IMG/VR virus record: IMGVR_UViG_3300027798_002855
Length of the DNA stretch: 64,000 bases
Strand: one strand, 5' to 3'
From: an uncultured virus (IMG/VR IMGVR_UViG_3300027798_002855)
Taxonomy: Duplodnaviria > Heunggongvirae > Uroviricota > Caudoviricetes
Shown piece by piece: positions 5,585-38,758 of this stretch (the first letter of the stretch is position 1; every line of letters starts with the position of its first letter). Position numbers and translations under genes: made by a program. The notes under the pieces were generated by a model. The model ran no database searches. It saw nothing but the letters and a program-made list of their open reading frames with translations, and had not been told where the DNA came from.

Positions 5585-5586
5585 TA

Positions 5587-6447: not shown

Positions 6448-6513
6448 TGCTATAATAGTTAGTGCACCTGCCAAAAGGGGGTGCACTACTTACTCGCTGA
6501 AAAGGAGAAAAAG

Positions 6514-6930: not shown

Positions 6931-6968
6931 GTATAATGCTATAATTGTTAGATACTAAGGGAGCAGAT

Positions 6969-7145: not shown

Positions 7146-7160
7146 AGATATACTTAGATC

Positions 7161-8408: not shown

Positions 8409-8420
8409 TATAATCTTATT

Positions 8421-9812: not shown

Positions 9813-9815
9813 TAC

Positions 9816-9995: not shown

Positions 9996-10000
9996 TAAAA

Positions 10001-14258: not shown

Positions 14259-14288
14259 AAAGCGGGCTTAGAAATAGGCCCGCTTTTT
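14259..14288. terminator. Bidirectional intrinsic terminator between convergent units
   Basis: AAAGCGGGCTTA-GAAA-TAGGCCCGCTTT flanked by A and T runs. Confidence 0.85.
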
Positions 14289-15336: not shown

Positions 15337-16094
15337 TCTTTATACCCCCAGGCTTGATCATCTGAAGTAAATTTACGTGTACCTTTGCGTCCATCTAGGT
15401 GGTAGGATCGTTTGATATTGCCCTCTGGGTGATATATCCAAAGTTTATGAATGTTCCAACCCTCATCGCTGAAACTGTTGTAAGGAAATGAATCGTCTTG
15501 AATTTTTCCATGAAATCTATCTTCTATAAAAGATTTTTCTTGGCAGAATGGCAGAACAACATTTTTATAATAATCTTTTTTAGATAGGTGTGGTCTTTGA
15601 CTCCATTGTGCAGTTTTCATAAAACCATCTTCTAACTCAATCATCAAGTGTTTATGGGGATTTGGAATTGTAGCCTCAAAGTGAAAACGAATAGTATTTG
15701 CTTTACCATATTCAAGCATATCTAAACACTTTTGCCAATCAATTGGTAAGTCTGGTGTTAGTGGAGCATCCCCTTCAACATAAAGAAGAGCAGATGTTTT
15801 AACTTCATCGATTGTTCTAAACATCATTGTGGTTTGATGACAGTGCTCCTCAAAAATAAAAGGTAATACATTTTTGTATTCATGTAAACATTTCCATAAT
15901 ATGCGATTTTTATATTCATCATAATCTTTCTTACGATGTTGTTGTTCTTCTCTAAGACCATCAATCTGCATAATAATTTCATTATCTGGAAAATGAACAC
16001 GAACGTCTTTAATTGTTTGCTCTATCATCTCTGTGCTTGGATGATCTGGAATCACAGAGGTGGCTAGGATAATAGTTACATCATTAATGTTCAT
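15333..16094 (-). CDS. GT-A-like glycosyltransferase
   Basis: YVEGD (DxD-like), HLDGR; position in cluster. Confidence 0.55.
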   Translation of the reverse strand: MNINDVTIILATSVIPDHPSTEMIEQTIKDVRVHFPDNEIIMQIDGLREEQQHRKKDYDEYKNRILWKCLHEYKNVLPFIFEEHCHQTTMMFRTIDEVKTSALLYVEGDAPLTPDLPIDWQKCLDMLEYGKANTIRFHFEATIPNPHKHLMIELEDGFMKTAQWSQRPHLSKKDYYKNVVLPFCQEKSFIEDRFHGKIQDDSFPYNSFSDEGWNIHKLWIYHPEGNIKRSYHLDGRKGTRKFTSDDQAWGYKE

Positions 16095-16941
16095 TTAAAT
16101 GTCTCATTATCTTAAAAGAAAAATCTCTTTTATATTTTAACCACCAGCATACGGCTCTGTGAAGATTTGCTGGATAATCATTCATTAGTTTTTCAAAAAT
16201 GTTAGGCAATTCATTCCAGTCGTAAGTTAACTCTATTGGAACATTTTTGCCATAAACATAATCGTAAAAATTTATTTCTCTGCCCTTCGGATCTTTACGA
16301 TCTCCTATTGGTAAGGTCAACATTTCTATTGCCTCAAAAAACCTAAATGAATCTATTACTTGTGCACCAGATGGGGATGGAGCAACTTTTGCGCTTGCCA
16401 GTTTGCGATAGTACTCTTGTGGTGGATCCCCCTGTGCAAAGCCCTCTGTAGGGCAATATAGGGCGTTTTTGACTGCAGACATGGCCTTGGCTAACTCTTG
16501 TCTGCGTTGATGAGTTATTTGACCACCAAAATAAATATCATAATCTTTAATAGAATAATCAGGCAGGTTATTTTTTAAATGCTGGGGAACTCCAATAAAA
16601 AACCTATTGTATTTTTCGTGTTTTTGGTGCGGGTATTGAATCCAAATGCTTATATTAGGATGCTTAATTGCATCAACATTAAACAAACCTTGCTCATCTC
16701 CAGTTATAAATAATACAACACGATTAAGGTTTGCTAGTTCTTTGTTTATTTGTTCTTCACTACCTGCATTTCCCTGGCCTGGTATTACAACAAAAGCTCT
16801 ATCATCTTTAGGAATGCAGGTAACTAAAATTTCTTCTACACGGTTTCTATTGAATGCTTCTTTAAGCAAGCCGTAATCCCATTTGCCATTAGCAGAATCT
16901 AGTGGATCTGTAGAAAAAATATATACTTTAGATTGATTCAT
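16084..16941 (-). CDS. Exostosin/GT47-like glycosyltransferase
   Basis: FGGQ..R, PSG..DSFRFFEAI..LPI. Confidence 0.65.
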   Translation of the reverse strand: MNQSKVYIFSTDPLDSANGKWDYGLLKEAFNRNRVEEILVTCIPKDDRAFVVIPGQGNAGSEEQINKELANLNRVVLFITGDEQGLFNVDAIKHPNISIWIQYPHQKHEKYNRFFIGVPQHLKNNLPDYSIKDYDIYFGGQITHQRRQELAKAMSAVKNALYCPTEGFAQGDPPQEYYRKLASAKVAPSPSGAQVIDSFRFFEAIEMLTLPIGDRKDPKGREINFYDYVYGKNVPIELTYDWNELPNIFEKLMNDYPANLHRAVCWWLKYKRDFSFKIMRHLNEH

Positions 16942-17641
16942 AAAATAAATGAACCTCATGCTGATAGTCTAAAATTATTTCAGTATATCCTAATCCCTTG
17001 ATCCATTGTCTAAGATTATATAAAGATTCATCCCATTGCTGTAACATAAACTCAGGGTGTCCAGATAGCCAGATCTTTGGTTTGTACTCTCTAAGCACCT
17101 TCTCTGCACCTCCTAGCACCCTCCATTCACTACCCTCTACGTCCAATGAAATAGCGGTAGGTGGCTTAATGCCATGATCATACACACAAGAATCTATAGT
17201 AATTTGACCATAGGCATCTCCTTCAAGGTATAGTTCTTTAAATCCATGTGCTGCCTCAATTACATCATTAACTTCTGGAGGCCATTCATTATAATAAATT
17301 CTTGCAAGATCATTTATTTTATCAGAAGCAAACCCAGGAATACATACCATAGGAAGTTCTAGGTTGTTTGCAGTCCATGTTGCAGGAAAGTGCGACCAAA
17401 CTTTAGGATTTGGCTCAAACAACACCACCTCTGCTCCCCACATTTGACACAGCGCTGGAAACTCTCCTTCTTCAGCACCAACGTAGTAAACAACATCTCC
17501 AGTACCAATGTTCTCAGACATATGCTTTAGTCTTGGTTTTTCCCAACCGTGTGGTTGATACCAGTCTGGTCTATCAGCACGATGCTTTGGTAGTGTTATT
17601 TCAAATTCCCCGTTAATAGTAGCCTTAATCATTTCAGTCAT
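16928..17641 (-). CDS. FkbM-family methyltransferase
   Basis: VGAEEG, FEPNP, LDVEGSE..VL.G. Confidence 0.85.
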   Translation of the reverse strand: MTEMIKATINGEFEITLPKHRADRPDWYQPHGWEKPRLKHMSENIGTGDVVYYVGAEEGEFPALCQMWGAEVVLFEPNPKVWSHFPATWTANNLELPMVCIPGFASDKINDLARIYYNEWPPEVNDVIEAAHGFKELYLEGDAYGQITIDSCVYDHGIKPPTAISLDVEGSEWRVLGGAEKVLREYKPKIWLSGHPEFMLQQWDESLYNLRQWIKGLGYTEIILDYQHEVHLFYESI

Positions 17642-18521
17642 TTTGTATCCATTCCATTAATGATACCTTTGGTATCCATCCAGTTAAATCTTTAAACTTG
17701 GCATTAGACGCAAGAGTTTCTTGCACTTCACCAATTCTTGGCGGGATAAATTTAATATCATTTGAAATCATATTAGCAATATCAAGTATAGCGTAGTTGC
17801 TTCCATACCCAATGTTATATACCTCACCAAATCCATTTTCAACTTCAGATGCAAGTATGTTTGCTTCTATTACGTCTGATATATGAGTAAAATCTCTACG
17901 CTGAGATCCATTACCAACTACTGTTAGTGGTTTTGACTCATGATATTGTTTTAAGAATAGTCCTATTACTGGGGCATACTGTCCTTTTAATGGTTGTCTA
18001 TCTCCATAAACATTAAAATATCTAAGAGATATAGTCTTTAATCCGTAAAGGTTATAATAAACTCTTGCAAGGTTTTCACCAAAAACTTTAGCAGCAGAGT
18101 ATGGAGTTAACGGATCAGGCGATTGGGTTTCTTGGTTTGGAAGCAAAGCCTTTTTACCATAAGAAGAAGATGTGCTTGAATAGATTAGCCTATCTACCTT
18201 ATTAACCCTACAAAGTTCAAGAACATTTGCTGTTCCTACTGCGTTTGATTGAATAGATTTTTTAGGATTTAATATTGCTGGCTGTATTCTTGCATCAGAT
18301 GCTACGTGAAATACGCAGTCAACATCTTTAAAAAGTGATGCAATTAAGTCATAGTCACAAATATCATACTTATAGTTTTGTGCCTTATCATTCCAATAGA
18401 ACTGCTCATGACACTCTGCAGACTCATCATCAATACAAACAACGTCGTGACCAAGACTAATTAACTTATCAACAAGGTTTGAACCAATAAAACCAGCACC
18501 ACCAGTTACTAAATATCTCAT
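17634..18521 (-). CDS. NAD-dependent nucleotide-sugar epimerase/dehydratase
   Basis: TGGAGFIGS, YxxxK, LRYFNVYG, RDFTH. Confidence 0.93.
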   Translation of the reverse strand: MRYLVTGGAGFIGSNLVDKLISLGHDVVCIDDESAECHEQFYWNDKAQNYKYDICDYDLIASLFKDVDCVFHVASDARIQPAILNPKKSIQSNAVGTANVLELCRVNKVDRLIYSSTSSSYGKKALLPNQETQSPDPLTPYSAAKVFGENLARVYYNLYGLKTISLRYFNVYGDRQPLKGQYAPVIGLFLKQYHESKPLTVVGNGSQRRDFTHISDVIEANILASEVENGFGEVYNIGYGSNYAILDIANMISNDIKFIPPRIGEVQETLASNAKFKDLTGWIPKVSLMEWIQND

Positions 18522-19477
18522 TGTATGTTTAATGTTTCTAGTATTGTTGCCCACCTGTGTACATATGTGTGCTCTTGTTTAGTTCTTTCATGCCCAGCAA
18601 GTCTTATACTCTCTCTTGAAAGACCATCTACTAGATACTTATCTATCTTGGTTTTTAGATCTTCAAGATTACCATGTTCATAAAATACAATCTCATTGCC
18701 ATCTTCAAAGTATTCTTCAAGTCCTGTAATGCGAGGGTAGATAGTAAAACCACCACGACCAGTACTTTCAAACAATCTATCACTAGTGTAGTAAGGATAG
18801 TTAAAGTTAATATTTAAACTATCACCTATTGCTATTTTGCTTCTTGCATAAATCCGATTTAAAGCATCTCCACGTACAGTTCCAGTATCTCCATCGCCAC
18901 CAACATGACAAAACCTACTGCCGTAAGTGTCTTTTAAAAAATCTATTAGTTGTGGACGGAATGGATACTCTTTGTGATATCTTTTACTTCCCACGAAAAT
19001 AACATCATGATCGTAATACTTTTTATTATAATCTGAATGAAGATAGCACTCTTTGTCATAAACTCCAGCAGGAACAAAATGACCTTTTACTTTTGTATTT
19101 TTGTTAAACCAATCAGTCATTAGCTTGTCTGTAGCAAAGAAATGTTCTATGTTTGTGTAAAAACCATCATCTTTTAAGTCTTTTTGACGCTCAATACCAA
19201 ACCAAAGATCAAGATGATAAGTCATGGTTGGTATGTTAATCATCTTCAATTCTTGTAAAACTTCAATCATGTCAAAGTGTCCAGGGGTTTTCCAGCCATG
19301 GGTGTGTACCCATATGAATAAATCTGATTCTGATGCCTGGTAAAATATCTCTTTACCTGTTGCTTGACGCTCTTGTAATTTTATTACAGTATGACCCAGA
19401 GACTCCAAAGACGCTGCGTGATGATTCTCACTAGAATATGGAACTTCAAAGTTACCAAGAAAAACAATTTTTGCCAA
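18518..19477 (-). CDS. CgeB-like glycosyltransferase
   Basis: DVIFVG, SDRLFE..G.G, HTYVHR; TTG start after GGAGG. Confidence 0.8.
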   Translation of the reverse strand: MAKIVFLGNFEVPYSSENHHAASLESLGHTVIKLQERQATGKEIFYQASESDLFIWVHTHGWKTPGHFDMIEVLQELKMINIPTMTYHLDLWFGIERQKDLKDDGFYTNIEHFFATDKLMTDWFNKNTKVKGHFVPAGVYDKECYLHSDYNKKYYDHDVIFVGSKRYHKEYPFRPQLIDFLKDTYGSRFCHVGGDGDTGTVRGDALNRIYARSKIAIGDSLNINFNYPYYTSDRLFESTGRGGFTIYPRITGLEEYFEDGNEIVFYEHGNLEDLKTKIDKYLVDGLSRESIRLAGHERTKQEHTYVHRWATILETLNIQ

Positions 19478-19531
19478 TTTTATCCTCCACTGTAAATAAT
19501 TATAGCATGATATACTTGTAATAGGGGTAAA

Positions 19532-20224
19532 ATGAATTTTATATATATATGTCGTGGCGGGGAAAACCAAGAACTTAGGTACTCTGTTAGGACAGTTGTT
19601 AATAGTTTTCCAGACTCAGAGATCTGGGTAGTCGGCGGTATACCAAATTGGTACAAAGGTAAAAGTATAAGCATAGAGCAAAATGCTAGTAAATATAATA
19701 ACGCTATAGAAAACCTAAAGGCTATCGTAAAGTCTACAGAAACCCCAGAAGAGTTTGTTTTAATGAATGATGACTTCTTCATTGTAGACAAAATAAATTC
19801 AATAAAACATTATCACGAGGGACCCCTCCTTGATAAAATTGAAAAATACAGGGATTTAAAAATGGATCCTAGTTACGTTCAAAAACTTGGACAGACCTAT
19901 GCCAGATTACAAAGAATGGGCATGGAAGAGCCTGTAAGTTATGAAACTCATACCCCAATGATTATGCTTAAAGATAGGCTTAAAGAGGTTTTACAATATT
20001 GTCCTACTAGCCTTTGGAGATCTCTGTATGGCAACATACATCATGTTGGTGGAGAACAAATAAAAGATGTAAAGGTTTACTATAGAGATAGGTTTGCAAA
20101 AATATCAAATGACTATACTAATTCTGATTTCCCTTTGATGTCTACAGACGATGAATCATTTTTAATAATAAGAGATAGTTTATTAAAAAATAAGTTTAAC
20201 AAGAAAAGTAAATACGAGAAATAA
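19532..20224 (+). CDS. Stealth-like sugar-phosphotransferase
   Basis: ELRYSVRT and LMNDDFF motifs. Confidence 0.6.
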   Translation: MNFIYICRGGENQELRYSVRTVVNSFPDSEIWVVGGIPNWYKGKSISIEQNASKYNNAIENLKAIVKSTETPEEFVLMNDDFFIVDKINSIKHYHEGPLLDKIEKYRDLKMDPSYVQKLGQTYARLQRMGMEEPVSYETHTPMIMLKDRLKEVLQYCPTSLWRSLYGNIHHVGGEQIKDVKVYYRDRFAKISNDYTNSDFPLMSTDDESFLIIRDSLLKNKFNKKSKYEK

Positions 20225-20226
20225 AA

Positions 20227-20913
20227 CTATCTCATAAAATGATAATCGCCATCTGGGCCATTGTCAGAAAACATCCCCATGTTTTTAAATCCTTGTGATG
20301 AAAGATAATCAATGATAACTTCTTTTTCAGGAGATCCAATATTATACTCTACATCTCTTAGTTCTACTATGAGGTGTTCACAAGTTTTTAATGATTCAGT
20401 TGCACCCACAAGGACATCTAGTTCTGCGCCCTGAACATCAATTTTAATAAAGTCTGGCTCTTTAAACATCTCATATTTGACGGTATCATCTAAAGTAATG
20501 GTTGTCATTTCAACTATACTGTTATCATCAAACAAATAATCTGCTGCTGAACTATATTTTGAATTTTCCTTGTAATATGAATTGCCAGCAAAGTTATCAT
20601 TGTTCTGATAAAACTTTATATTTTTGTCAGAAGCATTACTTAAGGCACCAATGCTGTATTGCAATCCGCTTTCAACATAAAGACTTTCAAATGCATCTGT
20701 TGCATCAAACAAAACTATTTCACTCTCAGGCCAGATATCTTGCGCTCTTTGTGTCCAGTGTAAAACACATGCTCCAATATCATAAATTACTTTTGGGTTG
20801 AAGTTGTAATCATATTTTAATTTAAGCAGATATTTAAAATGTTTATCTGGTAGGTTTCTATAGTCGCTAACCTTTTTAATATTATCTAAAATATTTTTAT
20901 TATATTGTTTCAT
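20227..20913 (-). CDS. FkbM-family methyltransferase, second
   Basis: DIGA, IKIDVQGAELDVL.G. Confidence 0.85.
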   Translation of the reverse strand: MKQYNKNILDNIKKVSDYRNLPDKHFKYLLKLKYDYNFNPKVIYDIGACVLHWTQRAQDIWPESEIVLFDATDAFESLYVESGLQYSIGALSNASDKNIKFYQNNDNFAGNSYYKENSKYSSAADYLFDDNSIVEMTTITLDDTVKYEMFKEPDFIKIDVQGAELDVLVGATESLKTCEHLIVELRDVEYNIGSPEKEVIIDYLSSQGFKNMGMFSDNGPDGDYHFMR

Positions 20914-21487
20914 TGTTAATATCATACTTTCCAATTTTATTTAGCCACTGTGCCATAGCCCATGCCTCACGAAACCTTATGTTTGCCATAGTCATACCAT
21001 ACTCTCTACACAACCTTTCAAAATCTTTATAGGTTTTTGGTTTTTTTGTAAAAAGAATCCACATCAAGGCCGACTCTGTTGTTAAAAATGTTTTGCCACC
21101 TTTTATATGAGAAGGTCTTTTAATTACGTTGCACCTTCTGCATCTCAAAGTCATGTTTTCTAAACTGTCTGCTTGATCCCCTAACACTTCTCTCGGAACT
21201 ATGTGATCCGCCTGCAATTCAAGTCGTGTTCCGCAGTCAGCACATTTACCATTTTGATTCTTATGCCATTCATAAACAGCCTGCATGGTTTTTCTTGGTG
21301 GATATTTACTTTGAAAAGTTTTTTTTGATGCTATAGAGGTTCCCACTTGTGATGGATTTAAGTGTCCAAGAACTAAAGCCACAACTTCTTGCATGGTAAC
21401 AAGACCCTCTGTAATTAATTCATTTAATAAATTAATCCAATCTTGTTGAGTCCATTCACGATCACTGTCTGGAAATTTATTTTGCAT
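20900..21487 (-). CDS. HNH endonuclease
   Basis: CADC..DHIVP..N...CRRCN. Confidence 0.8.
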   Translation of the reverse strand: MQNKFPDSDREWTQQDWINLLNELITEGLVTMQEVVALVLGHLNPSQVGTSIASKKTFQSKYPPRKTMQAVYEWHKNQNGKCADCGTRLELQADHIVPREVLGDQADSLENMTLRCRRCNVIKRPSHIKGGKTFLTTESALMWILFTKKPKTYKDFERLCREYGMTMANIRFREAWAMAQWLNKIGKYDINNETI

Positions 21488-21641
21488 TTTTCTTTTCTTC
21501 AACTAATTTTTTAATATTGTTTATTTTAGTATAGGCATCTCCACCAGCATCAAGAAGTATTATAACTTCATCAAACGCTTGCTTACGAGCTTTTTTACAG
21601 CCATTGCAAGGACAAGCCCAATCTTTATTGTTGCTTTCCAA
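21477..21641 (-). CDS. Small Cys-rich protein (54 aa)
   Basis: TTG start, WACPCNGCKKA. Confidence 0.5.
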   Translation of the reverse strand: MESNNKDWACPCNGCKKARKQAFDEVIILLDAGGDAYTKINNIKKLVEEKKNAK

Positions 21642-26802: not shown

Positions 26803-27019
26803 AGTGTCCTCCCTGTTGGTAGTATTCTCTTACTTCTTTATTATACCTTGCCGATTCTAAAATCTCAAGTGCTCTTGAATAAGGCACATAGGGAATAGCG
26901 GTTGCCAAGTAGTAGCCAACTGCCTCTAAGTCTAAAGAAAAATCAGATACGAGTGTAGAAATCTTTTGGGCAACCTTCTCCTCTTTTGTAGGTGTAGCGT
27001 TGCGTTTGATTCTATACAT
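26783..27019 (-). CDS. Hypothetical protein
   Basis: GGAGG RBS before MYRIK. Confidence 0.7.
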   Translation of the reverse strand: MYRIKRNATPTKEEKVAQKISTLVSDFSLDLEAVGYYLATAIPYVPYSRALEILESARYNKEVREYYQQGGHYDDRLF

Positions 27020-27822: not shown

Positions 27823-27945
27823 TTCTTTCCTCTCCTTTGGTGTTTATGTCAATTCTATCAAAATCCAGCGGTAATGTCAATTGCTGATAAATCCCTAATA
27901 GATCCAACTGTTGTTTTGCCTTTAATACATCTAATGATTCTATTA

Positions 27946-29369: not shown

Positions 29370-29447
29370 GGGGGTCCTTTCTGTTTGTCGTAATACAATT
29401 ATCCCAAAATCAGGGAATTCTGTCAATCTGTCGTAAAGTGATTTTGG

Positions 29448-29930
29448 TCACACCTTTCCCTCTACCCTCGTGGATTGGCATTCCATGCACTTAGGATCTA
29501 TAGGATCGTAGTACTCTTTATAGCCAACATCCTCCAACTCACCTGCGGCAGTATATGTGGCCTCGTTATAGGAATTCTCCATGAATGAGAACCTAGTTAC
29601 ATTATTACAATCTAAACACTTAGGCATCTGCACCCATCTCCCATGGCTCTACTTTATAGTTTGCACATATTTGCTCAATGCAATCTTCAAGTTCGGTAAA
29701 GAATAGGCCACCTTCATTGTCGTCAAAATGACTAATCATGTTGTCAGTTATCTTGAATTCCCATACTATTTTCATTGGACATGTCCTTCTGCTAACAGAC
29801 CTTCAAAGAAGTCCCATACTATTAGTAATTGTTTATAGTTTTGTTCATCCCCTTGGTTTTTGGCAGTATCAATAGCCCAAGTCAAACTATTACCAAATGC
29901 TTGTATATCTTGATATGTATAACCTAACAT
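29448..29930 (-). CDS. Three short coupled ORFs (29772-29930, 29620-29775, 29448-29633 Zn ribbon)
   Basis: Own translation; AGAAAGG RBS and promoter upstream. Confidence 0.6.
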
Positions 29931-30079
29931 AATTACCCTTTCTGTGGTAAATATATTGTAGCAAATTTTGGGGAAAAAATCAAACTATCGTAAAGAATTT
30001 TAGGTAAAAATATCATGGATCCCGGGGGGATTTTAAAAAAATTGAGCAGTTTATACTCTTACTCAGGAGTTGAATTAGA

Positions 30080-31090
30080 TTAAACTAATTCTAAAGTATT
30101 TTTTACAATACCTAGCAGACGATTTTTTTCTGCTGTAATTGTCGCATCAAAACCAGAAGCAGCAGCAAGCAGAGATTCGTTAGAATTACCACGAGCAGAC
30201 CTGTGCCAATCAAGGCGTTCAGTTAGAGCATTGAAAGCACCCCAAGCGGTATTGGCAATCATGCCATTAAACTCGCCTGTGTAAATATCATTGATTAAAT
30301 CAATTTTATTTTCCCACTTCTTTGATGAGCCTTTAGAATCTTTATCAGGCTTAGGATAAGCAGCAAGAACAATATCATTGAACTGTTGCGCTGTGATTTC
30401 TTTTTCAATCATAGCCTTAGCCATAACATCAAAAGAATCCATATAAGCATTAGCAAGACCAAGGGCCTCACGAGCAATTTGGACTTTACCATTAGCGGTC
30501 TGTGTGTGGCGAATCTTGAAAGATTGCTTGATTTTATTCTTCTTAGAACCAAGCGCAAGATTAAGAGTGTTAGCGCATACAACACGCACTGGTGTGATAC
30601 TTGCTTGAATAGCAATAGAGCCATCATGTGATGTATTGATAAGTAAATAAGTTTTTACCTTATCTGCCACACCATTAGGGTCTAATACTGTTTCACGCTC
30701 AAGAGCAAGAGAGCCAAATACAACACGCCCTCCACGAATAGAGCCAGCGGTTTCCCATCTGCCTCCACCATCTAGGATATTATCACCAAATGAGAATAAG
30801 TCCTCATTTTGTAAAACATGATAACGCTCACCAACAACACCTAAAATATCTGTCTGAGAGTTATTTGTAGGATTTGTCCTAACAACATACTGATATTCTT
30901 TATCTGATGATAAAGTATTTGGAATCTCAACATCAACTAATCTAACATTCCAATTATTTAGATTAGCAGCAGCAAGCATTTCTGCTGTGGTTTTTTCATC
31001 TGTGAATACTGTGCCTAGACCATGCCAAGCAGGCTCACGCAATGAAGCAAAAGAAGCAACGCCATTTTGCGTTTCTAACTCATGTGCCAT
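30080..31090 (-). CDS. DUF932 (phage/plasmid-like TIGR03299) protein
   Basis: MAHEL..PAWHGLG, ETAGS..GG, NTSHDGS, TPVRVVCANT. Confidence 0.9.
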   Translation of the reverse strand: MAHELETQNGVASFASLREPAWHGLGTVFTDEKTTAEMLAAANLNNWNVRLVDVEIPNTLSSDKEYQYVVRTNPTNNSQTDILGVVGERYHVLQNEDLFSFGDNILDGGGRWETAGSIRGGRVVFGSLALERETVLDPNGVADKVKTYLLINTSHDGSIAIQASITPVRVVCANTLNLALGSKKNKIKQSFKIRHTQTANGKVQIAREALGLANAYMDSFDVMAKAMIEKEITAQQFNDIVLAAYPKPDKDSKGSSKKWENKIDLINDIYTGEFNGMIANTAWGAFNALTERLDWHRSARGNSNESLLAAASGFDATITAEKNRLLGIVKNTLELV

Positions 31091-31270
31091 TTTTATTTCC
31101 TTTCTATTTGTTTAGACAATCATATCAGGTGGGTCTGACAATGTCAATTCATACTATTAAGAATCTGGGCAAAACGGACATCGTTCTTAAACTTGACAAA
31201 AGATCTTTTTGCCCCCCGGGATTTTGGAGAGCAGTTTTAAGACATGCTCAGGTCTTGGATAGCCCCACTA

Positions 31271-31735
31271 TCACACGTTATAGATATTATCTATCTCAAC
31301 ACCTACTTCTCCGTCATATGAATTTAGTTCAGCATAAACATTTAAGTCAATGTCGCTAACCTCAAAATTAGCAACTTCATCTAACGGAACTAATATTGTT
31401 CCTGTGATTGTGGCGGTAGCCTCAAACTGAATTTCCTTAGTAGGATTAAATCCAAAGATACTACAAATATCAGCAACGATTTCCTCTGAACCCATATCAA
31501 GGTAATCAGGTAGGCGACTTTCTAACAGACCTACTCCCTGAGTATATCTATTAAGTTCTCGTCTTTCTCTGCGGTGTTGATGTAATTCCCACTCAAGGTC
31601 GCTAACCTTTACTGTGGGATACCAATTTGTATAGTCTGTTTGGTGTGCCTCAGAATCAATAATCTTATAGGTCACGATTTGATTTGGGTTGTAGTGGTTT
31701 GGCACTACTATTTCATTAGTTGTTTCTGTATTCAT
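31271..31735 (-). CDS. Hypothetical protein
   Basis: ORF track. Confidence 0.7.
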   Translation of the reverse strand: MNTETTNEIVVPNHYNPNQIVTYKIIDSEAHQTDYTNWYPTVKVSDLEWELHQHRRERRELNRYTQGVGLLESRLPDYLDMGSEEIVADICSIFGFNPTKEIQFEATATITGTILVPLDEVANFEVSDIDLNVYAELNSYDGEVGVEIDNIYNV

Positions 31736-31997
31736 TTAAGAGTTCCTCTCCTACTGTATCCATTTCTTTAATGGTATCCATCATATCGTTTAACTGTTCC
31801 TCTGTCAATAGTGCGTGGGTCACTAAGGTTGTTGTCATAGCAGAGAGCATAGCGGAATAGTTATACATCTCTTTGATAAAACTTTCATCATCTACTTCAT
31901 TTCTGATACTGACAATGTGTTTCACAATTTCCATTATCATGTCATCATGAACTGCGTCTCTTGACGCTTCTTGTAATTTAATAGCGGTTGCTATCAT
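31716..31997 (-). CDS. Hypothetical helical protein
   Basis: AGAAAGG RBS before MIATA. Confidence 0.7.
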   Translation of the reverse strand: MIATAIKLQEASRDAVHDDMIMEIVKHIVSIRNEVDDESFIKEMYNYSAMLSAMTTTLVTHALLTEEQLNDMMDTIKEMDTVGEELLNEYRNN

Positions 31998-32228
31998 GGG
32001 GCGTTCCTTTCTTTTGGTTATACCCAAGTCTATCAAAAATATAGGAAAAATACAAATCGTGTCTTAAACCAGCTATGTGATCATTATCACATTTCCCGGG
32101 GGGCGCAAAAAAAATAAGCAGTTTTAGTTCATGCTTAGGAACTGTATGCCTCGCTATAGCACTGGCAGGGACATTTGGTTGTGGCTGGGGGAATTCCGAT
32201 TACACACCCGAAACCAGCCACAATTCTA

Positions 32229-32396
32229 TTAGTGTGTTTTTACCATAGCAAATCTTGTTTGATTATTTGCCAAGCGCAACATTACTTTAGTGACATTACG
32301 AGTTTGTGGGACAAACTTTTCAATGCGACCTGTAATACCTGTTTTGCTTGTTGTAAATAAATCACCAAGTTGGTATCTGTATCCTCCAAGTGTCAT
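32229..32396 (-). CDS. Small SH3-like beta protein (55 aa, not in track)
   Basis: YQLGDLFTTSKTGITGRIEKFVP; AGAAAGG RBS. Confidence 0.7.
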   Translation of the reverse strand: MTLGGYRYQLGDLFTTSKTGITGRIEKFVPQTRNVTKVMLRLANNQTRFAMVKTH

Positions 32397-32471
32397 TTAC
32401 TTTTCCTTTCTGTTAGGGGTTTTTGTTGAGCAGTTTTAGTTGTCATACTCAGGACATTTAGCGTTTGCTAA

Positions 32472-32891
32472 TTATAGATAACGAGCGATAGCATTATAGG
32501 TGCTAGTGCTAACTACTTCCTCATCTGTCATTTTGAGAATACGAATTGCGTTCTCAATTTCATCTACCATTTCCTTGTATTGCCACTCATTGTAAGTGTC
32601 AAAATCTTTCTGAGGTTCATCAGGTAGAACTATACTTCCACTAGGTAAGTTGAAATCTACATTTATAGTGCCATTGTAGCGAACATTGGCAGATAAATCT
32701 GTTGCCTTGCTTATTTGAGCAAGTGCTAACTTTCCTACTTCTTTGTTGTATTTCTCTTGCGCCTTTGAGAACTTTTCCTCATTGACTTTTTGATTAGCCT
32801 TATCCTTTTGGATTTGGGCTAGTTTTGCTTCTAGAGCCTTTATGACTTTAGTTGTAGCGATTTTTACGCTAATTGCTTTTCCTCTTGACAT
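32472..32891 (-). CDS. Hypothetical coiled-coil protein
   Basis: ORF, own promoter and AGAAAGG RBS. Confidence 0.75.
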   Translation of the reverse strand: MSRGKAISVKIATTKVIKALEAKLAQIQKDKANQKVNEEKFSKAQEKYNKEVGKLALAQISKATDLSANVRYNGTINVDFNLPSGSIVLPDEPQKDFDTYNEWQYKEMVDEIENAIRILKMTDEEVVSTSTYNAIARYL

Positions 32892-32977
32892 AATTACCTT
32901 TCTGTGTAATTTATTGGTGGGCTATTATTTTAGCATTTTTAGGTGGGATAGTCAATTTGGCTACCCCACCCATTTGA

Positions 32978-33142
32978 CTACTTAGATTTCCAAGTTGTCC
33001 AACGAGTTGCGCCATTTACATCAAGTTTAACGCGAACTGTGTCCTTGTTGGTTGGCACGATTTCCTTGATAACACCTGTCACCTTAGACTTCTGTGAGGT
33101 GTAAGTGTCGCCGACCTTGTAAGTTGCTACTGCTACTGACAT
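32978..33142 (-). CDS. Small SH3-like beta protein (54 aa), paralog of 32229-32396
   Basis: YKVGDTYTSQKSKVTGVIKEIVP; AAGGAG RBS; TTGACA promoter. Confidence 0.7.
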   Translation of the reverse strand: MSVAVATYKVGDTYTSQKSKVTGVIKEIVPTNKDTVRVKLDVNGATRWTTWKSK

Positions 33143-33386
33143 TGTTTCTCCTTTGTTAGTTGTTTTTTCATTACTGTATTATTATCGCATTTTTGGTATT
33201 TATTGTCAAGTCCTATACCCTAAAAATCTCATTATTTGAGATTTGTGAGGTAAGTCACTAATTGCCCATTCCCGAAAAAACTAGCAGTAGGCATGTGACT
33301 CCTAAGATTATTAGTAATTCCACGATTCCCCTTTCTGTCCTTGATTTTATCATTTTGCGGGGGTATTGGTCAAGTCCCCCTAGATC

Positions 33387-34106
33387 CTACTTCTTCTTAG
33401 CAGAGAAAACTATATTAGCCTTGTTATCAATACATAGAGAGCAGACTACGCAAGCAGAGCCCTCTTTAGATATTAGTGGAATAGCCTTTTTATTTTCAGG
33501 GCATTTAGCTCCAGGCTTACCTATCATCTCTTTCATATCTGCCTGACCAATTGCGAAGGTATCAGCAAGGTATGCTAATTTAACTCCAGTATCTTTATTT
33601 AATTTAATAGCAATTTTTTTATTCTCGCTATCTGTGGAATAGTATAGAGATAGATTATCAATACCCTTAAGAATATTGACCGCAGAGGCTACTCTTGTAT
33701 ATACCCAAAACTTTATATCAGAATTATTAAGGATGATATGCTTCCAGGCGAAGGCATAAGTATCATTGAAAAAGTCTCCGTCCCAATGGATACGAAATAA
33801 TTTAGGAGCATTGCGCTTATCACAATCAGCCTTAAAATCATTTATCATATCTTGCAATAGGTCTTCCATAGTATCGTGGTCAGCGTCTTTTAATAAATTC
33901 CAATTATGAATTAGGTTTTCTCTTACGCCTTTATATACTCTTTCAAGTTTTCCTGCGTAGCAAACACTTTCACAAACACTAGTGGCACCAGGGCACGAGT
34001 AAGCCTTGCCAGCAGGCAGTCCAAAAGTGTTGGCGATTGTTGCGGTTTTTCCATTGGGTGATACGGCATTAGCGACCTTTCTATCGTTAGAGCGTTTTAG
34101 TTTCAT
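33387..34106 (-). CDS. Gp88-like (radical-SAM-related) phage protein
   Basis: FGLPA..SCPGA..C...CYA, FRIHWDGDF, YTR. Confidence 0.8.
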   Translation of the reverse strand: MKLKRSNDRKVANAVSPNGKTATIANTFGLPAGKAYSCPGATSVCESVCYAGKLERVYKGVRENLIHNWNLLKDADHDTMEDLLQDMINDFKADCDKRNAPKLFRIHWDGDFFNDTYAFAWKHIILNNSDIKFWVYTRVASAVNILKGIDNLSLYYSTDSENKKIAIKLNKDTGVKLAYLADTFAIGQADMKEMIGKPGAKCPENKKAIPLISKEGSACVVCSLCIDNKANIVFSAKKK

Positions 34107-34141
34107 AGGGGTCCTTTCTTACTTCCTAGAATAACATTTTT

Positions 34142-34270
34142 TTAATCTTTTGTCAATTTTTTATGCTTGGTTTTGCGGGAATAAATTTTCTTGTTCCTTA
34201 ATGGCGTGGCAGCAGAAGACCTACGTAATTCCATTAATCTACGTAATTCTTCTCTAGGTTTTTTCCACAT
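34142..34270 (-). CDS. Small basic protein (42 aa)
   Basis: ELRRSSAA.P..NKK.YSRK.KH; leaderless. Confidence 0.55.
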   Translation of the reverse strand: MWKKPREELRRLMELRRSSAATPLRNKKIYSRKTKHKKLTKD

Positions 34271-34334
34271 AAAATAATCTTATCATAAAAATATCATAAA
34301 AGCAAATCGGACAAATCGGGCGCCCCGGGGGCTT

Positions 34335-35299
34335 TTATTCTAAAATATACAATTCAAATTTTTCATTATCAAAAATTTCAACATCTTCTTTTTCATCAAA
34401 CTCATTATCAATGACAAGAGCGAACCCATCTTTAGTTGGAGTAATTGAAATAATTTTTACAATACCAATAATGCCTAAACCAATTAGATCTCCTACTTCT
34501 AATTGGTCAGCATTAAGAATATCTACAAATCTGTAATCCATAGAAATTAGTGTATCAGACATTTATTTACCTGATACCCTTCCGTCACGATAAAAAATCT
34601 TAGTAATCATTTTACCTGATGGCTCTGAAAAATTGTAGGTTGCGTATTCATTAGCAAATCCCCAATCCTTTATTTTATCCCACTCGCCAACTGCGCTAAT
34701 TGCGTCAGAATAACGACCAACCCAATAAGGGGCTTTATCGTTATCATAGGTTGCGGTAATTGCGTATAAGTATTCCATTTTAGTATTCCCTTTCAATAAG
34801 CCACGCATTTAGGTGGTGTTGCTCAATAATAGCCCAAGCAGGGGCGGTAGTCAAACCCTTATAGGTTATTCCTTCAGGCATAGGTATTTCTAAATCCCAA
34901 AGTCCAGCGTCATTAACTGCGTCTATGGCTTCAACGCAAGGAGCAACCATAGAGCGGGGAACGGGCGGGTAATGATTAGCAGATAGGTGAATTGCTATCT
35001 GACTTTCAATTTCAAGATTATCAGCAAGGGCTAAATCGTGAGCAAAAATACTTCCCATTTTAGTTAGCCTCTCTACTAGCAAAGATACTGAGATTATAGA
35101 AATCTTTAATTAGTTCAGGCTCGCTTAGCAAACCATTATCCCAAATTACATCTCCGTCATCATCTAAGATTAGTTCATAGGGATTACACTCGCAAACCTC
35201 AAAATCAAAATCCTCGCCAATTCCCCAATACAAATTACCTTTACCCTCGCAAGCATTACAATTGCGAATTGTGTTTAACGCGTATTCTACTTTATCCAT
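34335..35299 (-). CDS. Operon of four short hypothetical ORFs (35060-35299, 34780-35058, 34563-34778, 34335-34562)
   Basis: Abutting ORFs; the first has CNAC.G.G..CEC. Confidence 0.65.
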
Positions 35300-35394
35300 T
35301 TTTCTTTCCTTCTTTCTGTTTAATACTGTAAGCCTATCAGATAGGGCTGACATTTCCAAATCTGCCACGCCCTGTCCGATATGTCCGTTTTGTC

Positions 35395-35892
35395 CTACCA
35401 AGAACTCTGATAGTAGAAAGACAATTCCTCAAACTCAGGCAGATTAATTAGCCTTCTCAATTGCTTTCTAGTATCCTCAATATCTCGCCAATACCACTCA
35501 TCAATATCTGTTCCACCAAAGAAAAATCCTTCTGTTGGCGGTAGCAAATTAGGGTCCTTATTAGTTATAGCCAAAGCACAAAGTGTTTCTAATTCTCTTA
35601 TCTTAGTATTGGATACATAGTATTCTCCACAATTATCCTCGCCACCTTGAATATTCTTTACAAACCAATTGTGTATCTGATTACACTTGCGCCAATAGCA
35701 GACATTTACTGACACATCTACACCATAGATACCTTCTCTATCTGCGAGGGTAGCCAAACCAGCACTATCTACTACATTATCCCATTGTGGATAAGTAGCC
35801 TGTGAATACTTAGTATCGCTATCACGATCAAGTAAATCCCAATTTACTTTTTTAATGTGCTTTCTAGCACTCATATACATATCTAATCCCAT
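35395..35892 (-). CDS. Widespread phage early hypothetical protein
   Basis: MGLDMY, YWRK.NQIH.WF, FYYQSSW. Confidence 0.8.
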   Translation of the reverse strand: MGLDMYMSARKHIKKVNWDLLDRDSDTKYSQATYPQWDNVVDSAGLATLADREGIYGVDVSVNVCYWRKCNQIHNWFVKNIQGGEDNCGEYYVSNTKIRELETLCALAITNKDPNLLPPTEGFFFGGTDIDEWYWRDIEDTRKQLRRLINLPEFEELSFYYQSSW

Positions 35893-35893
35893 T

Positions 35894-36058
35894 TTACTGT
35901 TCCTTCTTTCCAAAAACATTTTCCATTATATTTAAGTTTTCCTCTGTTAGAAAACTCTGTGCGCTTCCCCATAAGCCATAAATATAGTTATCACCATATT
36001 TTTCTTTAGCTAATTTTTCAATATTAGCAATTCTTTCCATTTTTTCAATAACTGTCAT
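35894..36058 (-). CDS. Hypothetical protein (54 aa)
   Basis: AGAAAGG RBS; YGLWGSA. Confidence 0.55.
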   Translation of the reverse strand: MTVIEKMERIANIEKLAKEKYGDNYIYGLWGSAQSFLTEENLNIMENVFGKKEQ

Positions 36059-36183
36059 TTTAGTTATCCTTTCTTTATTTTCAGGCTTCTAGCCTATCAT
36101 TTTCTACTGACAAAATCAAATTAGACACGCCCAAAAACTGTGAGAAAATTCACAAGCCCCGTAAAGTGCTACGTAATTCACAT

Positions 36184-36204
36184 TGTGGATAACCCTGTGG
36201 ATAA
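36184..36204 (-). promoter_or_regulatory. Tandem DnaA boxes
   Basis: TGTGGATAA twice, 3-bp spacer. Confidence 0.7.
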
Positions 36205-36416
36205 CCCCCCCGGGGCCTTGCAACTCTAACTATTTAAATTAAAGTTGCAATTTTGAAATCAAACTTTTATTTGATTCCATTTCATTTCAGCATTTTTTTT
36301 TCGCAATTCTCTGTTTTCATTTTCTAATTTTCTAAGTGTAATTAGTCCGTGAAATGTTATTCCAATTAAGCCAACGAGAGCAATTATTATTGCGATTACA
36401 TCAGTTGTTAAAAGTG

Positions 36417-36868
36417 TCATACGGGAATTAGTCCTATCTCATCAACACCGCAAGCCTTCTCAAATCTTGCGAAGTCAAATCTATCATTGTCAGACTTGAA
36501 AAATTGTGAAAACTCCTCTACCAAATCCTCAAAAACTTGCGGGTGGATTTCCTCGCTGAAACCTTTTAGAATTTCAGCGGTTTTGACATAGTCTTTTCGT
36601 GTCATCATTAGTTAGACCCCTCATCTAATAGAATAAATGCGTGAGTTCCACCATTATTTATTTTAGTTAGTGCTATTAGCAATTCATCTTTAGTTAGAAA
36701 TGAAGCGTCACCTACCAATTCGGTTAGTGCTTGAATATTTAATTCAGCAAATGCGCCAGCAGGCAGGCTCTCAATACTAGATAGAAATGGAGAGTCAGAA
36801 TAAACTCTTGAAACGAATTTTACTCCGTTAGTTGTAAATGGGAAATCTTTATAGGTTGTGTTAGTCAT
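36417..36868 (-). CDS. Two short hypothetical ORFs (36608-36868, 36417-36608)
   Basis: Coupled; MTRKDY..DN.RFD..RF..AC. Confidence 0.7.
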
Positions 36869-36996
36869 AGTTAGTTTTTACCTTTCTTGGTGTTTGTGTT
36901 ATTTACTATTTTAGCGATTTTCTCTAAGTTTGTCAATTCTTGCGCCTTGCGCTGGCTCTCAATAAGAGCCTTGAATTCGTGTAGTTTCATTGGAGA

Positions 36997-37203
36997 TTAC
37001 TCTCCAACTTTAACTGCTAGGGTAGCCCAATAATCTCGGGAAGCAAATCTGAAGCGAATTGCGTAGGCTTCATAGCCCTCAGATAGATAGACATTATCTC
37101 GCTTCTCAGCGTAGTTAATTTCTCCACCCATAAATCTCCTGCTCATAGAGCGTGGATAGTAGAACTTGCCAACTAGCAAGTCTGGAATTGAGTATGATTT
37201 CAT
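36997..37203 (-). CDS. Hypothetical protein
   Basis: AGAAAGG RBS, own promoter. Confidence 0.65.
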   Translation of the reverse strand: MKSYSIPDLLVGKFYYPRSMSRRFMGGEINYAEKRDNVYLSEGYEAYAIRFRFASRDYWATLAVKVGE

Positions 37204-37315
37204 TTTAAGTTATCCTTTCTAAGATACTTTCTAATAGTTCTATTATTTCATTTTTTAGCGTAAAAGTCAAATTAGACCCACGCTTGGTGAGTGTGAGGTT
37301 AATCACACCTTCCCC

Positions 37316-37513
37316 CTAGTTAGGGAGAATGTCTATTCCGTAGTATTCTACGGCTTCAACTATGTTAGTCATACCCTTATACTCACGACAAGATACGCAT
37401 ACCGCGTTCCAACGATCATAAGTAGTTGAGCAGAACACGCAGATTTTATCTTGAAAATTAAAGTTATTTTCAATTAAGTATTCTATTACTTGATTTTTAT
37501 CTAGTGTAGTCAT
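37316..37513 (-). CDS. Zn-finger-like protein
   Basis: CVFC..CVSCREYKG. Confidence 0.65.
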   Translation of the reverse strand: MTTLDKNQVIEYLIENNFNFQDKICVFCSTTYDRWNAVCVSCREYKGMTNIVEAVEYYGIDILPN

Positions 37514-37546
37514 TTTAAGACCTACCTTTCTTTTTAGTGTGTTAAC

Positions 37547-37615
37547 TTATTTGCTCTTATCTTATTTGCTAGGCTCACCTTTCGGATTATTTGCTAGGCT
37601 CATTTAAGAGGCTCA
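37547..37615 (-). repeat. Short direct repeats in 5' leader
   Basis: TTATTTGCT x3 and AGGCTCA x3 (16-mer TTATTTGCTAGGCTCA x2). Confidence 0.8.
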
Positions 37616-37925
37616 TTTAACACTATTTATTTTTTCTTATACTAGAATTATAACAGGGGGGTCTGACATTTTGAGAGAACAAATCAGGATAAATCGGACA
37701 TTCTGAAAAACTATTTTTGTGATAGTAGTCACAAATAAACTATGACAAATCGGACACCCCCCGGGGACCGACACGCCCGAACGCGGGGGTGGGAAAAGTG
37801 TGACCAACACCACAAAAATACTTTGCGACACGCCGTGTTTAGATTTGATTTTGTCGGTCTGCTCTGTTATACTTCCCGTATTAGATAGTTAAAATATAAC
37901 TACTAAACGAAAGGTAAAAACTAAA

Positions 37926-38758
37926 ATGATAAGCGATTTTTTTGGAAATACATTGGACTCAGTGTCAGACTTCTTTGGAAATATTACAGACTGGGCAGAT
38001 GATGCTTTAGCAAGTGGGCCATGGCCAGCATTTATTGGCGTTGCCATATGCGTGATTATAGGTATAGCCACCCTTTAGGGTGTGACCTAAATCACAGGGA
38101 TTACCCCACAGACACCCCCCAAAATGTCAGTGGCAACAGATAGAATTACAGGTATAACAAAAAGAAAGGTTAGGTAGCAAAAAATGCTAACACTAAATTA
38201 CACAGTATCTAAAGAGGATACTATACTTACAACATCAGATAGGCTGATGATAAATGAGCGTCAAATAAATGACCTTATGGATAGCCTAGTGGCTTACGGA
38301 TTTACAGTAGAGGCTATGTCAGTAGCCCCTGCTACACTTTAAGAATTAAGAAAGGATAAACTAAAATGATAAACGCAATAGAAAGAATAAATTGTGATGA
38401 GTGTTATGGACACGGACTTATTTTCTACGGAGATGAGAACAACTATGACACAGAACCTTGCGAGTGTGTATGACCTACACACTAGAGCAACAACTGCGCC
38501 TAGCGTGGATAAATAAAAATGGTAGCCCCAAAGGTTATCACCAAGCAACACAACAACAGAAAGAACAGGTGTTAAATGAAAATAACGATAACTAGTATGA
38601 GTGGCAAAGAAATGAAAATGGATTTGCCTACTAAAGAAAATGTCTATTACTTTATAGACCTATACAAAAAATCTCTAAAGAAAAATCAACGAGTAAAAAT
38701 TACTTGCGATTTATTAGGTATTGACGGATATTTACAAGGCACTGCTTCTAGTAAATAA
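37926..38758 (+). CDS. Four short rightward early ORFs (37926-38078 TM, 38184-38342, 38366-38473 Zn, 38576-38758)
   Basis: Own translation; GAAAGG RBS before the first three; PafBC-type promoters. Confidence 0.6.

Follow-up and report, generated by a model that had tools for sequence, protein, structure and literature searches.

Layout of the control region

The DNA analysed here is a stretch of 64 kb from an uncultured phage (Caudoviricetes; 37.7% G+C; IMG/VR record IMGVR_UViG_3300027798_002855), called the window throughout, in which a long region of small genes carries one short promoter after another, each with upstream sites that resemble those of the bacterial regulators PafBC, CRP, WhiA, BldC and DnaA. 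About 30 small genes run leftward from approximately 37.5 down to 26.5 kb and rightward genes begin at 37926. Between them the open reading frame (ORF) map, the sequence and the motifs place a divergent control hub of 412 bp (37514–37925), bordered by the first leftward gene (37316–37513, minus strand) and the first rightward gene (37926–38078, plus strand). About 15 short transcription units, each with a predicted sigma-A-type promoter, lie between 26.8 and 38.4 kb and diverge from this hub. A consensus scan of the minus strand gave seven sigma-70-type promoters matching at 11 of 12 positions and several matching at 10 of 12, and a motif scan of 29.4–38.4 kb gave about 13 leftward and three rightward promoter matches, each with a GAAAGG-type ribosome (Shine–Dalgarno) site and a start codon no more than a few tens of bases downstream. 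The original prediction, made from the letters of this DNA, had spoken of more than a dozen units with a promoter apiece and a different mix of sites at each; both statements agree with these scans, every promoter having its own set of upstream sites. The stack it had placed at 36091–36215 (a PafBC motif, GACACGCC, a CRP box, two copies of TTATCCACA and CCCGGG) is present with all elements where they were said to be, and the bounds of its divergent hub (37647–37873) coincide to the nucleotide with the outer ends of two divergent TGTCRG-N10-TAnnnT promoters. The array continues past the left bound that had been set for it (29390), with promoters down to 26840 (27852–27880 and 26840–26868, both from the promoter scan).

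Sigma-A-type promoters with canonical −35 and −10 hexamers are found on the minus strand at 37242–37270 (TTGACT-N17-AATAAT, with a perfect CRP box centred at −64.5), 36908–36936 (TTGACA-N17-TAAAAT, also recovered as repeat family D1), 34128–34156 (TTGACA-N17-TATTCT, preceding the GP88 gene), 33344–33373 (TTGACC-N18-TAAAAT), 33181–33209 (TTGACA-N17-GATAAT), 32927–32955 (TTGACT-N17-TAAAAT), 29955–29983 (TTGATT-N17-TACAAT) and 29398–29426 (TTGACA-N17-GATAAT, with a one-mismatch CRP box centred at −53.5). Here and below, positions are given relative to predicted transcription starts. Inspection by eye showed a hydrophobic mini-ORF of 20 codons at approximately 33269–33331 (minus strand), with its own ribosome site and the promoter at 33344–33373, lying between two promoters.

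Site motifs of the region

Promoters of a second kind carry the hexamer TGTCRG 10 nt upstream of TAnnnT. There are eight TGTCRG-N10-TAnnnT matches in the window against 0.96 expected, a number reached in none of 100 shuffles, and seven of them lie within 31119–38338 on the strand of the genes behind them, four leftward and three rightward. On the minus strand these are the leftward hub promoter (37647–37668; TGTCAG, 10 nt, TATAAT, with a TG extended −10 and a predicted start at about 37640); a hybrid promoter in the composite module 36059–36258 (36091–36112; TTGATT, TTGTCAGTA-N8-TAGGCT, that is TGTCAG-N10-TAGGCT); a promoter accompanied by two BldC-like repeats and, at −47, by a WhiA-like site with one mismatch (35331–35352; ATGTCAGCC-N8-TAGGCT); and a hybrid promoter ahead of the DUF932 gene, TTGACA-N17-TATGAT, whose spacer has TGTCAG at the −26 position (31119–31147). 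On the plus strand they are the rightward hub promoter, a hybrid with a −35-like TTGATT followed by TGTCGG, 10 nt and TATACT (37852–37873; predicted start at about 37880), TGTCAGTG-N8-TAGAAT with a perfect CRP box centred at −64.5 (38125–38146) and TGTCAGTA-N8-TACACT (38317–38338). For the promoters at 36091, 35331, 31119 and 38125 the predicted starts are at about 36084, 35324, 31112 and 38153. PafBC promoters have been published as tTGTCRgtg-8 nt-TannnT (PMC5656591), and PafBC, for which single-stranded DNA is the reported trigger (PMC11804915), is described as contacting a −26 element (−23 to −28, with a conserved GTC) and a canonical −10 without a −35 (PMC8635444). With the −10 element put at −12 to −7, the TGTCRG of the phage promoters falls at −28 to −23.

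The octamer GACACGCC occurs as three perfect copies in the 64 kb and no others, all given here on the plus strand: at 36124–36131, which reads as GGCGTGTC on the transcribed strand and starts at −47; at 37770–37777 in the hub; and at 37827–37834, starting at −53 of the rightward hub promoter. It is the WhiA/WhiB2 consensus reported for Mycobacterium tuberculosis from chromatin immunoprecipitation sequencing and in vitro IDAP-seq (an earlier data set gave CGACACGCCGn; PMC13473873), and the WhiA motif of Streptomyces is given as GACAC (PMC10243135).

The mycobacterial CRP site is reported as TGTGA-N6-TCACA (PMC13720381), and five perfect copies of this palindrome are present in the window, all intergenic and all within 32076–38096. 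They lie at 32076–32091, 36139–36154 (centred at −62.5 of the 36091 promoter), 37292–37307, 37718–37733 (in the hub, centred at −85.5 of the leftward hub promoter) and 38081–38096. Three more boxes have one mismatch (37799–37814, centred at −73.5 of the rightward hub promoter, 29437–29452 and 33244–33259), and at this stringency the total of eight compares with 2.56 expected, one of 100 shuffles reaching it. The sequence GAATTACGTAG is seen three times within 34218–34250 and 36163–36173, and TTACGTA-type cores adjoin CRP boxes in related phages; a further site is one possible reading and a degenerate second CRP box (TGTGAATTACGTCACA in some relatives) another. Operators of the lambda immunity type were considered for the palindromes and set aside, as the latter are centred at −53 to −86 and do not lie over the −35 or −10 of the divergent promoters.

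Enrichment and conserved geometry in related phages

A query with the GP88 protein retrieved 371 related IMG/VR stretches, the best 80 of which were used (1.32 Mb; one, L001, is identical to the window); removal of near-duplicates left 63 non-redundant loci (1,051,618 bp), for which 20 dinucleotide-type shuffles were made, as compared with 100 shuffles for the window counts. The 80 loci hold 368 perfect CRP boxes, 363 copies of GGCGTGTC and 303 of TTATCCACA, with at least one copy in 77, 75 and 76 loci respectively, and the loci that have none are truncated on the hub side. Among the 63 relatives five motifs exceed the shuffle means by 16- to 250-fold: CRP boxes (304 against 1.2), GACACGCC (297 against 7.0), TTATCCACA (247 against 15.1), TGTCRG-N10-TAnnnT (435 against 16.8) and paired 9-bp BldC-like units (105 against 0.9). 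Between 63% and 77% of the motif sites fall in the 27% of bases that lie outside long ORFs. Counts made without prior choice of motif gave the same picture, GGCGTGTC being the most over-represented intergenic 8-mer (219 against 2.0 expected) and TGTGA-N6-TCACA the top palindrome of 5-N6-5 form (304 against 42 for the runner-up). Over 296 unique contexts the former extends to cGGCGTGTCG, the reverse complement of CGACACGCCG.

Positional conservation across related phages, which had been named as a check on the original prediction, is pronounced. In the relatives the spacing between TGTCRG and TAnnnT is N10 in 435 cases, and each of the other spacings from N6 to N14 occurs 5–32 times; similarly, TGTGA and TCACA are separated by N4, N5, N7 or N8 in only 4, 0, 1 and 0 cases. 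The start of GGCGTGTC lies at −46 or −47 in 94 of 181 upstream occurrences, and that of the GACACGCC orientation at −53 in 80 of 124. CRP boxes (n = 252) are centred chiefly at −64.5 (67), −74.5 (30), −84.5/−85.5 (40) and −53.5 (9), peaks whose steps of about 10.5 bp would fit one helix face. These positions are not tied to one downstream gene: each WhiA position class recurs ahead of 32 different downstream-sequence clusters and the CRP position −64.5 before 21 (the cluster counts for recurrent site positions being 21, 20 and 32). In 27 aligned copies of the 36059–36258 module (mean identity 64%) conservation marks the motif columns and does not extend to the flanks, and different phages have different genes behind the module. 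In two complete relatives (113–120 kb) the motifs are restricted to the homologous hub region; in one of these, G002, all five CRP boxes lie inside 1.7 kb of 120 kb. Each genome has 3–9 WhiA sites and 4–5 CRP sites. A scan of IMG/VR for the combined pattern GGCGTGTC-N8-14-TGTCAG-N10-TAnnnT found at least 137 stretches, mostly with the same 10-nt gap, of which tens could be chance background; they are compatible with one phage group.

A small hairpin of 4–5 bp lies over the −10 and predicted start at 36059–36100 and in the homologous modules of the related loci (L002–L080), with compensatory changes among phages (AGGCT-AGA-AGCCT, ATTAC-AGA-GTAAT, CTTAC-GGA-GTAAG).

DnaA boxes, 9-bp repeats and G+C-rich elements

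Farther upstream in the composite module are two tandem copies of TTATCCACA, which we take to be the DnaA-box consensus (36184–36192 and 36196–36204, minus strand; 12 bp from start to start, at −120 and −108). The assignment to DnaA, like that of the repeats below to BldC, is weaker than those of the other motifs. In the long leader of the first leftward gene there are repeats of TGAGCCTAGCAAATAA (37530–37640), which may be origin iterons, and related 8-mers (GCTAGGCT, GAGCCTAG) are enriched in the relatives.

Pairs or single units of a 9-bp repeat occur at 34304, 35374, 37691, 37747 and 31171. Head-to-tail pairs are formed by AAATCGGAC and AAATCGGGC at 34304–34321 (plus strand; repeat family D15) and by AAAACGGAC and ATATCGGAC at 35374–35391 (minus strand), and a hub stretch (37691–37755, plus strand) contains two AAATCGGAC units, at 37691–37699 and 37747–37755. 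These resemble the contiguous 9-bp direct repeats AATTxxxx(C), for example AATTCGGTC, that BldC is reported to bind (PMC5859096).

The hexamer CCCGGG occurs seven times in the window against 2.63 expected (three of 100 shuffles reach seven), six times inside the control region and there always between genes. The copy in the composite module forms the core (36209–36214) of a G+C patch, CCCCGGGGGGG, at 36205–36215; the other cores are at 30021, 31215, 32095, 34324, 37760 and 26511, and the boxes sit within runs of C and G. They could reflect a co-evolving phage factor, a structural element or a link to restriction-modification. Next to the box, a hairpin with a 14-bp stem follows the upstream gene (36218–36250, minus strand; −20 kcal/mol, z −4.2) and is likely to be a terminator or insulator of the unit. 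A 26-nt element (TCCTGAGCA..AAAACTGCTC; repeat family D2) is found on the minus strand at 30044–30067, 31229–31252, 32116–32139 and 32428–32453. In the 63 relatives (consensus TCCTGAGCAtGA.ttaAAACTGCTCaa; 176 unique contexts) it is conserved and keeps to the space between a stop codon and the promoter module that follows; a T run follows it in 46 of the 176 and its stem GAGCA/UGCUC covaries, TAAGCA being paired with TGCTT in 22 of 22. It has no Rfam match and folds too weakly (−4 to −8 kcal/mol, z −0.4 to −1.7) for the terminator that we had considered; it may be a protein-bound RNA hairpin, for example a nut-like or processing site.

The phage and its host

The genes of the window include those for a portal, a class II ribonucleotide reductase, a cement protein, an Mtd_N tail protein and lysis enzymes, together with the DUF932 gene (30080–31090, minus strand; Pfam 2.4e-50, phrog_1221) and the GP88-family gene (33387–34106, minus strand; Pfam 3.5e-55, phrog_1392) of the leftward array. 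No tRNA gene and no Rfam match were found within the window. The portal is 45% identical across 99% of its length to that of Streptomyces BE-cluster phages (Stanwilliamsviridae), and the DUF932 and GP88 proteins have their best matches (about 53–54% identity) among Streptomyces and Mycobacterium phage proteins. Outside the bounds of the original prediction lies a gene for a WhiB-like (Wbl) protein (11908–12189, plus strand; Pfam Whib 43.4 bits against a cut-off of 23.6). WhiB is encoded in all five complete relatives (genomes of 108–120 kb), and the window protein is 56–62% identical to theirs by tblastn; among solved structures it matches WhiB7 and WhiB1 best, and membership of the WhiB2 subfamily is not clear-cut. 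Judged from its sequence the phage Wbl is a possible partner of a host WhiA; a complex prediction with Streptomyces coelicolor WhiA and a 4Fe-4S cluster (score 0.00) does not bear on this either way.

Wbl proteins are described as confined to Actinobacteria and their phages (PMC10202952; PMC13013590), and DNA nearly identical to the window is present in freshwater metagenomes from many studies. From the WhiB gene, the likeness of the portal to that of Streptomyces phages, the best matches of DUF932 and GP88 and the presence in freshwater metagenomes we infer that the host is an actinobacterium, most likely a freshwater one of low G+C. The idea of a cyanophage or another non-actinobacterial phage, suggested by the 37% G+C, was dropped on the WhiB gene, the Streptomyces-type portal and the motif set. 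Megablast of the control region against cultured phages and tblastn with the window's 1192-amino-acid protein gave no match, and the nearest virus record (G001) leaves the region uncovered. With the phage WhiB as query on genome contigs two contigs of metagenome-assembled genomes (MAGs) were matched. One, a 5.7-kb contig (L102) in a MAG labelled Chitinophaga pinensis, encodes a WhiB 85% identical to that of the phage and is probably a phage fragment mis-binned into a bacterial MAG, since this MAG has no other WhiB. Contigs of four freshwater metatranscriptome runs cover 29, 21, 16 and 27 of 30 bins of the 26–39 kb region; because contigs reveal neither transcript ends nor starts nor strand, and the libraries may contain carried-over DNA, we read them only as presence in RNA libraries.

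The rightward block that contains the WhiB gene also has genes for Hsp20, thioredoxin, a CHAP lysin, a subtilase and a pyrimidine-dimer glycosylase, as well as two staphylococcal-nuclease homologues (395–802 and 7421–7828). Genes for glycosyltransferases, two FkbM-type methyltransferases, an NAD-dependent epimerase/dehydratase and an HNH endonuclease are clustered at 14287–21502, in what looks like a sugar-modification island.

Which proteins read the sites?

The arrangement is rather probably, to judge from the sequences, one in which divergent promoters control the first genes of the phage, those of the host-takeover type, and are wired to regulators of its host. Recruitment of host regulators is the best reading because the complete relatives encode WhiB but no homologue of PafBC, CRP, WhiA, DnaA or a sigma factor: searches for WYL (PafBC type), Crp-type helix-turn-helix (HTH), WhiA HTH, DnaA C-terminal and sigma-70 region 2 domains each gave none in the five complete relatives, the controls being detected. 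From the motifs and their placement we infer the binding proteins, the sign of regulation and its timing. Host RNA polymerase with its housekeeping sigma factor would transcribe the 15 or so units from promoters of two kinds, canonical −35/−10 promoters and hybrids with TGTCAG at the docking place of PafBC (‘sigma adaptation’). WhiA sites (CGACACGCCG) would abut the −35, CRP boxes would act from about −54, −64, −75 and −85, and DnaA boxes and BldC-type repeats would lie farther upstream, each promoter having its own subset of sites, with the phage supplying the WhiB-like protein only. Host CRP would be an activator of class-I type; host WhiA and a WhiB-family partner, first host WhiB2 and later perhaps the phage Wbl, would co-activate beside the −35 as in the sepX complex; and PafBC would boost the hybrid promoters when single-stranded DNA arises in infection. 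The outcome would be that early phage expression is secured or tuned across host states. More tentatively, and here we would not be surprised to be wrong, an abundant lineage of freshwater actinophages may have evolved a modular promoter code by which its first genes are tied to no fewer than four host regulators at once (WhiA/WhiB for division, PafBC for damage, CRP for cyclic AMP and carbon, DnaA for replication), in which the phage Wbl would replace WhiB2 and redirect WhiA and sigma-A, a T4-like appropriation of sigma from host parts with modules shuffled as cassettes.

Several points weigh against this reading. Enrichment over shuffled DNA, which had been proposed as a check, was found for the PafBC-type, CRP and CCCGGG motifs in the window and for five motifs in the relatives, but not for the relaxed forms of the other two: GGCGTGTC at up to one mismatch occurs 18 times in the window against 13.1 expected (11 of 100 shuffles reach 18) and TTATCCACA 23 times against 24.5 (64 of 100 reach 23). 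As these counts are at chance, the case for both motifs rests on perfect copies and on the relatives, and the relatives do not furnish independent counts. The phage −26 element has no ‘gtg’ tail and reads TGTCAG in 95% of cases, a TG extended −10 is present in 76–78% of the TGTCRG promoters (and is strong in the logo), and a −35 of TTGAYN form lies at 17 bp in 69 of 421, the logo having a weak TTGAAA; because of these three features the promoters may fire without PafBC. Classical class I CRP sites are centred at −61.5, −72.5 and so on, from which the phage centres, using predicted starts, are about 3 bp away. Sigma region 4 is engaged by WhiA/WhiB as well as by PafBC, so that a promoter with both sites (36091, 37852) would be an either-or gate, on which the two must act as alternatives and never jointly. 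The BldC-like match is weak proof, and its assignment the weaker for it, because the BldC consensus is reported to tolerate much variation (PMC5859096); by analogy, the repeats could equally be read by a phage Xis/BldC-like protein of the Gp36 kind, mycobacteriophage D29 Gp36, a protein of this type, being described as a repressor of phage genes with direct repeats as its binding sites (PMC12266134). The DnaA boxes may be part of a replication origin. The CCCGGG box is specific to a lineage and outside the conserved code, occurring in 5 of 80 related loci, with CCCGAGGGG, CCTAGGGGG, GGGCCC and others at the same place elsewhere. Streamlined freshwater actinobacteria may be without some of PafBC, CRP and BldC. 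Finally, in 1–16 kb of the Streptomyces phage NootNoot, which has a comparable gene array, the hub-type motifs are absent, with no perfect CRP box, one GGCGTGTC and one TGTCRG-type match within a gene block; because the array is there without the motifs, the motif code belongs to the freshwater group. The original claim that the phage reads host damage, carbon and cell-cycle state is supported in part: the sites match the published consensus sequences as far as these are reported, they are conserved and fixed in distance, and an actinobacterial host is supported, but the BldC and DnaA assignments are weaker and the CCCGGG box does not generalize.

Three other explanations were weighed. The sites might be read by phage proteins (small early proteins, the phage Wbl or injected proteins) in a self-contained circuit, the likeness to host consensus sequences being convergence or mimicry. 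DNA-binding proteins could hide in the region because nearly all of its 25 or so small proteins are without a recognisable family; a weak, sub-threshold HTH_17 match is found in an ORF of about 183 amino acids in all five complete relatives, the G+C box varies by lineage as if co-evolving with a phage protein, and D29 Gp36 provides a precedent for a repeat-binding repressor of phage genes (PMC12266134). We nevertheless consider this unlikely. Four or five unrelated motifs each match a different host consensus over 8–10 positions with the right spacing, homologues of the regulators are missing from all five complete genomes, the sites are at positions of activator type and not over the core promoters, and the promoters that fire first cannot need proteins still to be made.

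Two further alternatives seem to us distinctly improbable. In one of them the sites are decoys that soak up host WhiA/WhiB2, CRP, DnaA and PafBC during replication and so shut down host division, replication initiation and the damage response. The regulators concerned do govern division, replication and repair according to the reports consulted (PMC13473873; PMC8635444), the WhiB of phage TM4 is reported to inhibit host WhiB2 function (PMC13013590), and the tandem DnaA boxes lie far upstream (−90 to −120) and are loosely positioned; yet the few WhiA and CRP sites per genome would make a small sink, for which locking to promoter distance and helical face is needless. Conserved sites at fixed distance and helix phase fit activator sites better than passive decoys, although titration is compatible with recruitment of host regulators and not exclusive of it. 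The other alternative, to which we give equally little credence, is that the hub and the DnaA-box module are, or include, a replication origin whose A+T-rich DNA and iterons recruit host DnaA, the transcription signals being incidental. The perfect tandem DnaA boxes, the TGAGCCTAGCAAATAA repeats with their relatives among the enriched 8-mers, the missing DnaA homologue in all five complete relatives and a cumulative GC skew minimum at about 39–41 kb, beside the hub, speak for it. The skew turn, however, is explained without an origin because it coincides with the switch in gene direction, and an origin would account for the DnaA boxes and iterons only, not for the CRP, WhiA and TGTCRG elements or the promoter geometry. 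The observation itself is real and much stronger than one window could show, and recruitment of host regulators is the best available, though unproven, interpretation.

If this interpretation is correct it gives a concrete, testable role to WhiB, a hallmark gene of actinophages, reveals how host state is sensed by phages whose hosts are streamlined, slow-growing freshwater Actinobacteria, extends known regulator consensus sites to low-GC Actinobacteria and offers natural promoters for dissecting activation by WhiA/WhiB and PafBC.

Comparison with known systems

Literature searches at the level of titles and abstracts returned no phage for which WhiA sites or PafBC-type promoters are reported, and both WhiA and promoters go unmentioned in a survey of phage WhiB and Lsr2 regulators. 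The statement of the original prediction that no such combined system had been described is in keeping with these searches, as far as titles and abstracts show. Phages that borrow a single host regulator are known, LexA being used in GIL01 or CTXphi and DnaA at lambda pR; what appears new, on the same searches, is the way in which one early region brings together conserved sites, locked in position, for several global regulators unrelated to each other, notable both for the number of regulators combined and for its modular design. Like those phages, this one would take global regulators of the host as inputs, and like the MotA/AsiA-dependent middle promoters of T4, whose sigma appropriation has been compared with the PafBC mechanism (PMC8635444), its promoters would need an extra factor that bridges sigma region 4 and DNA. 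It would differ from these systems in taking its bridging factors from the host, in joining several regulators within a module and in placing one and the same module before different genes.

As a gene array the region is most like that of the Streptomyces BE-cluster phages (Stanwilliamsviridae; NootNoot), which have a leftward terminal array of about 20 small genes with intergenic spaces, DUF932 and GP88 homologues and a related portal, while NootNoot differs in its 54% G+C and in being without the motif set. Positions 1–10000 of one such genome (NC_042009.1, L081) are syntenic with 29–38 kb of the window (DUF932 ... Lsr2-like ... GP88). The array of the BE-cluster phages lies in a long terminal repeat, and a freshwater relative (G003) has a 126-bp end repeat only. 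The 9-bp repeats recall D29 Gp36 (MerR/BldC/Xis-like), where direct repeats in a phage control region are read by a small winged-helix protein (PMC12266134); the D29 repeats are described as G+C-rich (GCGGC) and 15–19 nt apart, whereas those here are contiguous AWWWCGGAC units, as in BldC sites, and no phage protein of the Gp36 kind was identified.

For the individual sites the closest parallels are host promoters. The CRP boxes share with class I CRP-dependent promoters a perfect TGTGA-N6-TCACA with strict N6 and steps of about 10.5 bp upstream of the −35, and differ in being in a phage and in their centres (−53.5, −64.5, −74.5 and −85.5, from predicted starts, against the classical positions). 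The TGTCRG promoters are like the PafBC-dependent (RecA-NDp) promoters as reported in having this element at −28 to −23 with TAnnnT 10 nt later (PMC5656591, PMC8635444), and unlike them in lying in a phage and not before host repair genes, in having A as the R in 95%, in lacking the ‘gtg’ tail and in often combining a weak −35 with a strong TG extended −10; their dependence on PafBC is putative. The WhiA-type sites have the consensus GACACGCC/CGACACGCCG of promoters co-activated by WhiA and WhiB (Streptomyces sepX and the M. tuberculosis regulon; PMC13473873) and, as described for WhiA targets, lie just upstream of the −35 on either strand (PMC10243135), with a Wbl encoded by the phage itself; in contrast to the host targets they precede phage genes, their distance to the −35 is rigid (−46/−47 or −53) where host distances are said to vary, and the phage Wbl, unlike the partner in host WhiA/WhiB2 pairs, is not clearly of the WhiB2 subfamily.

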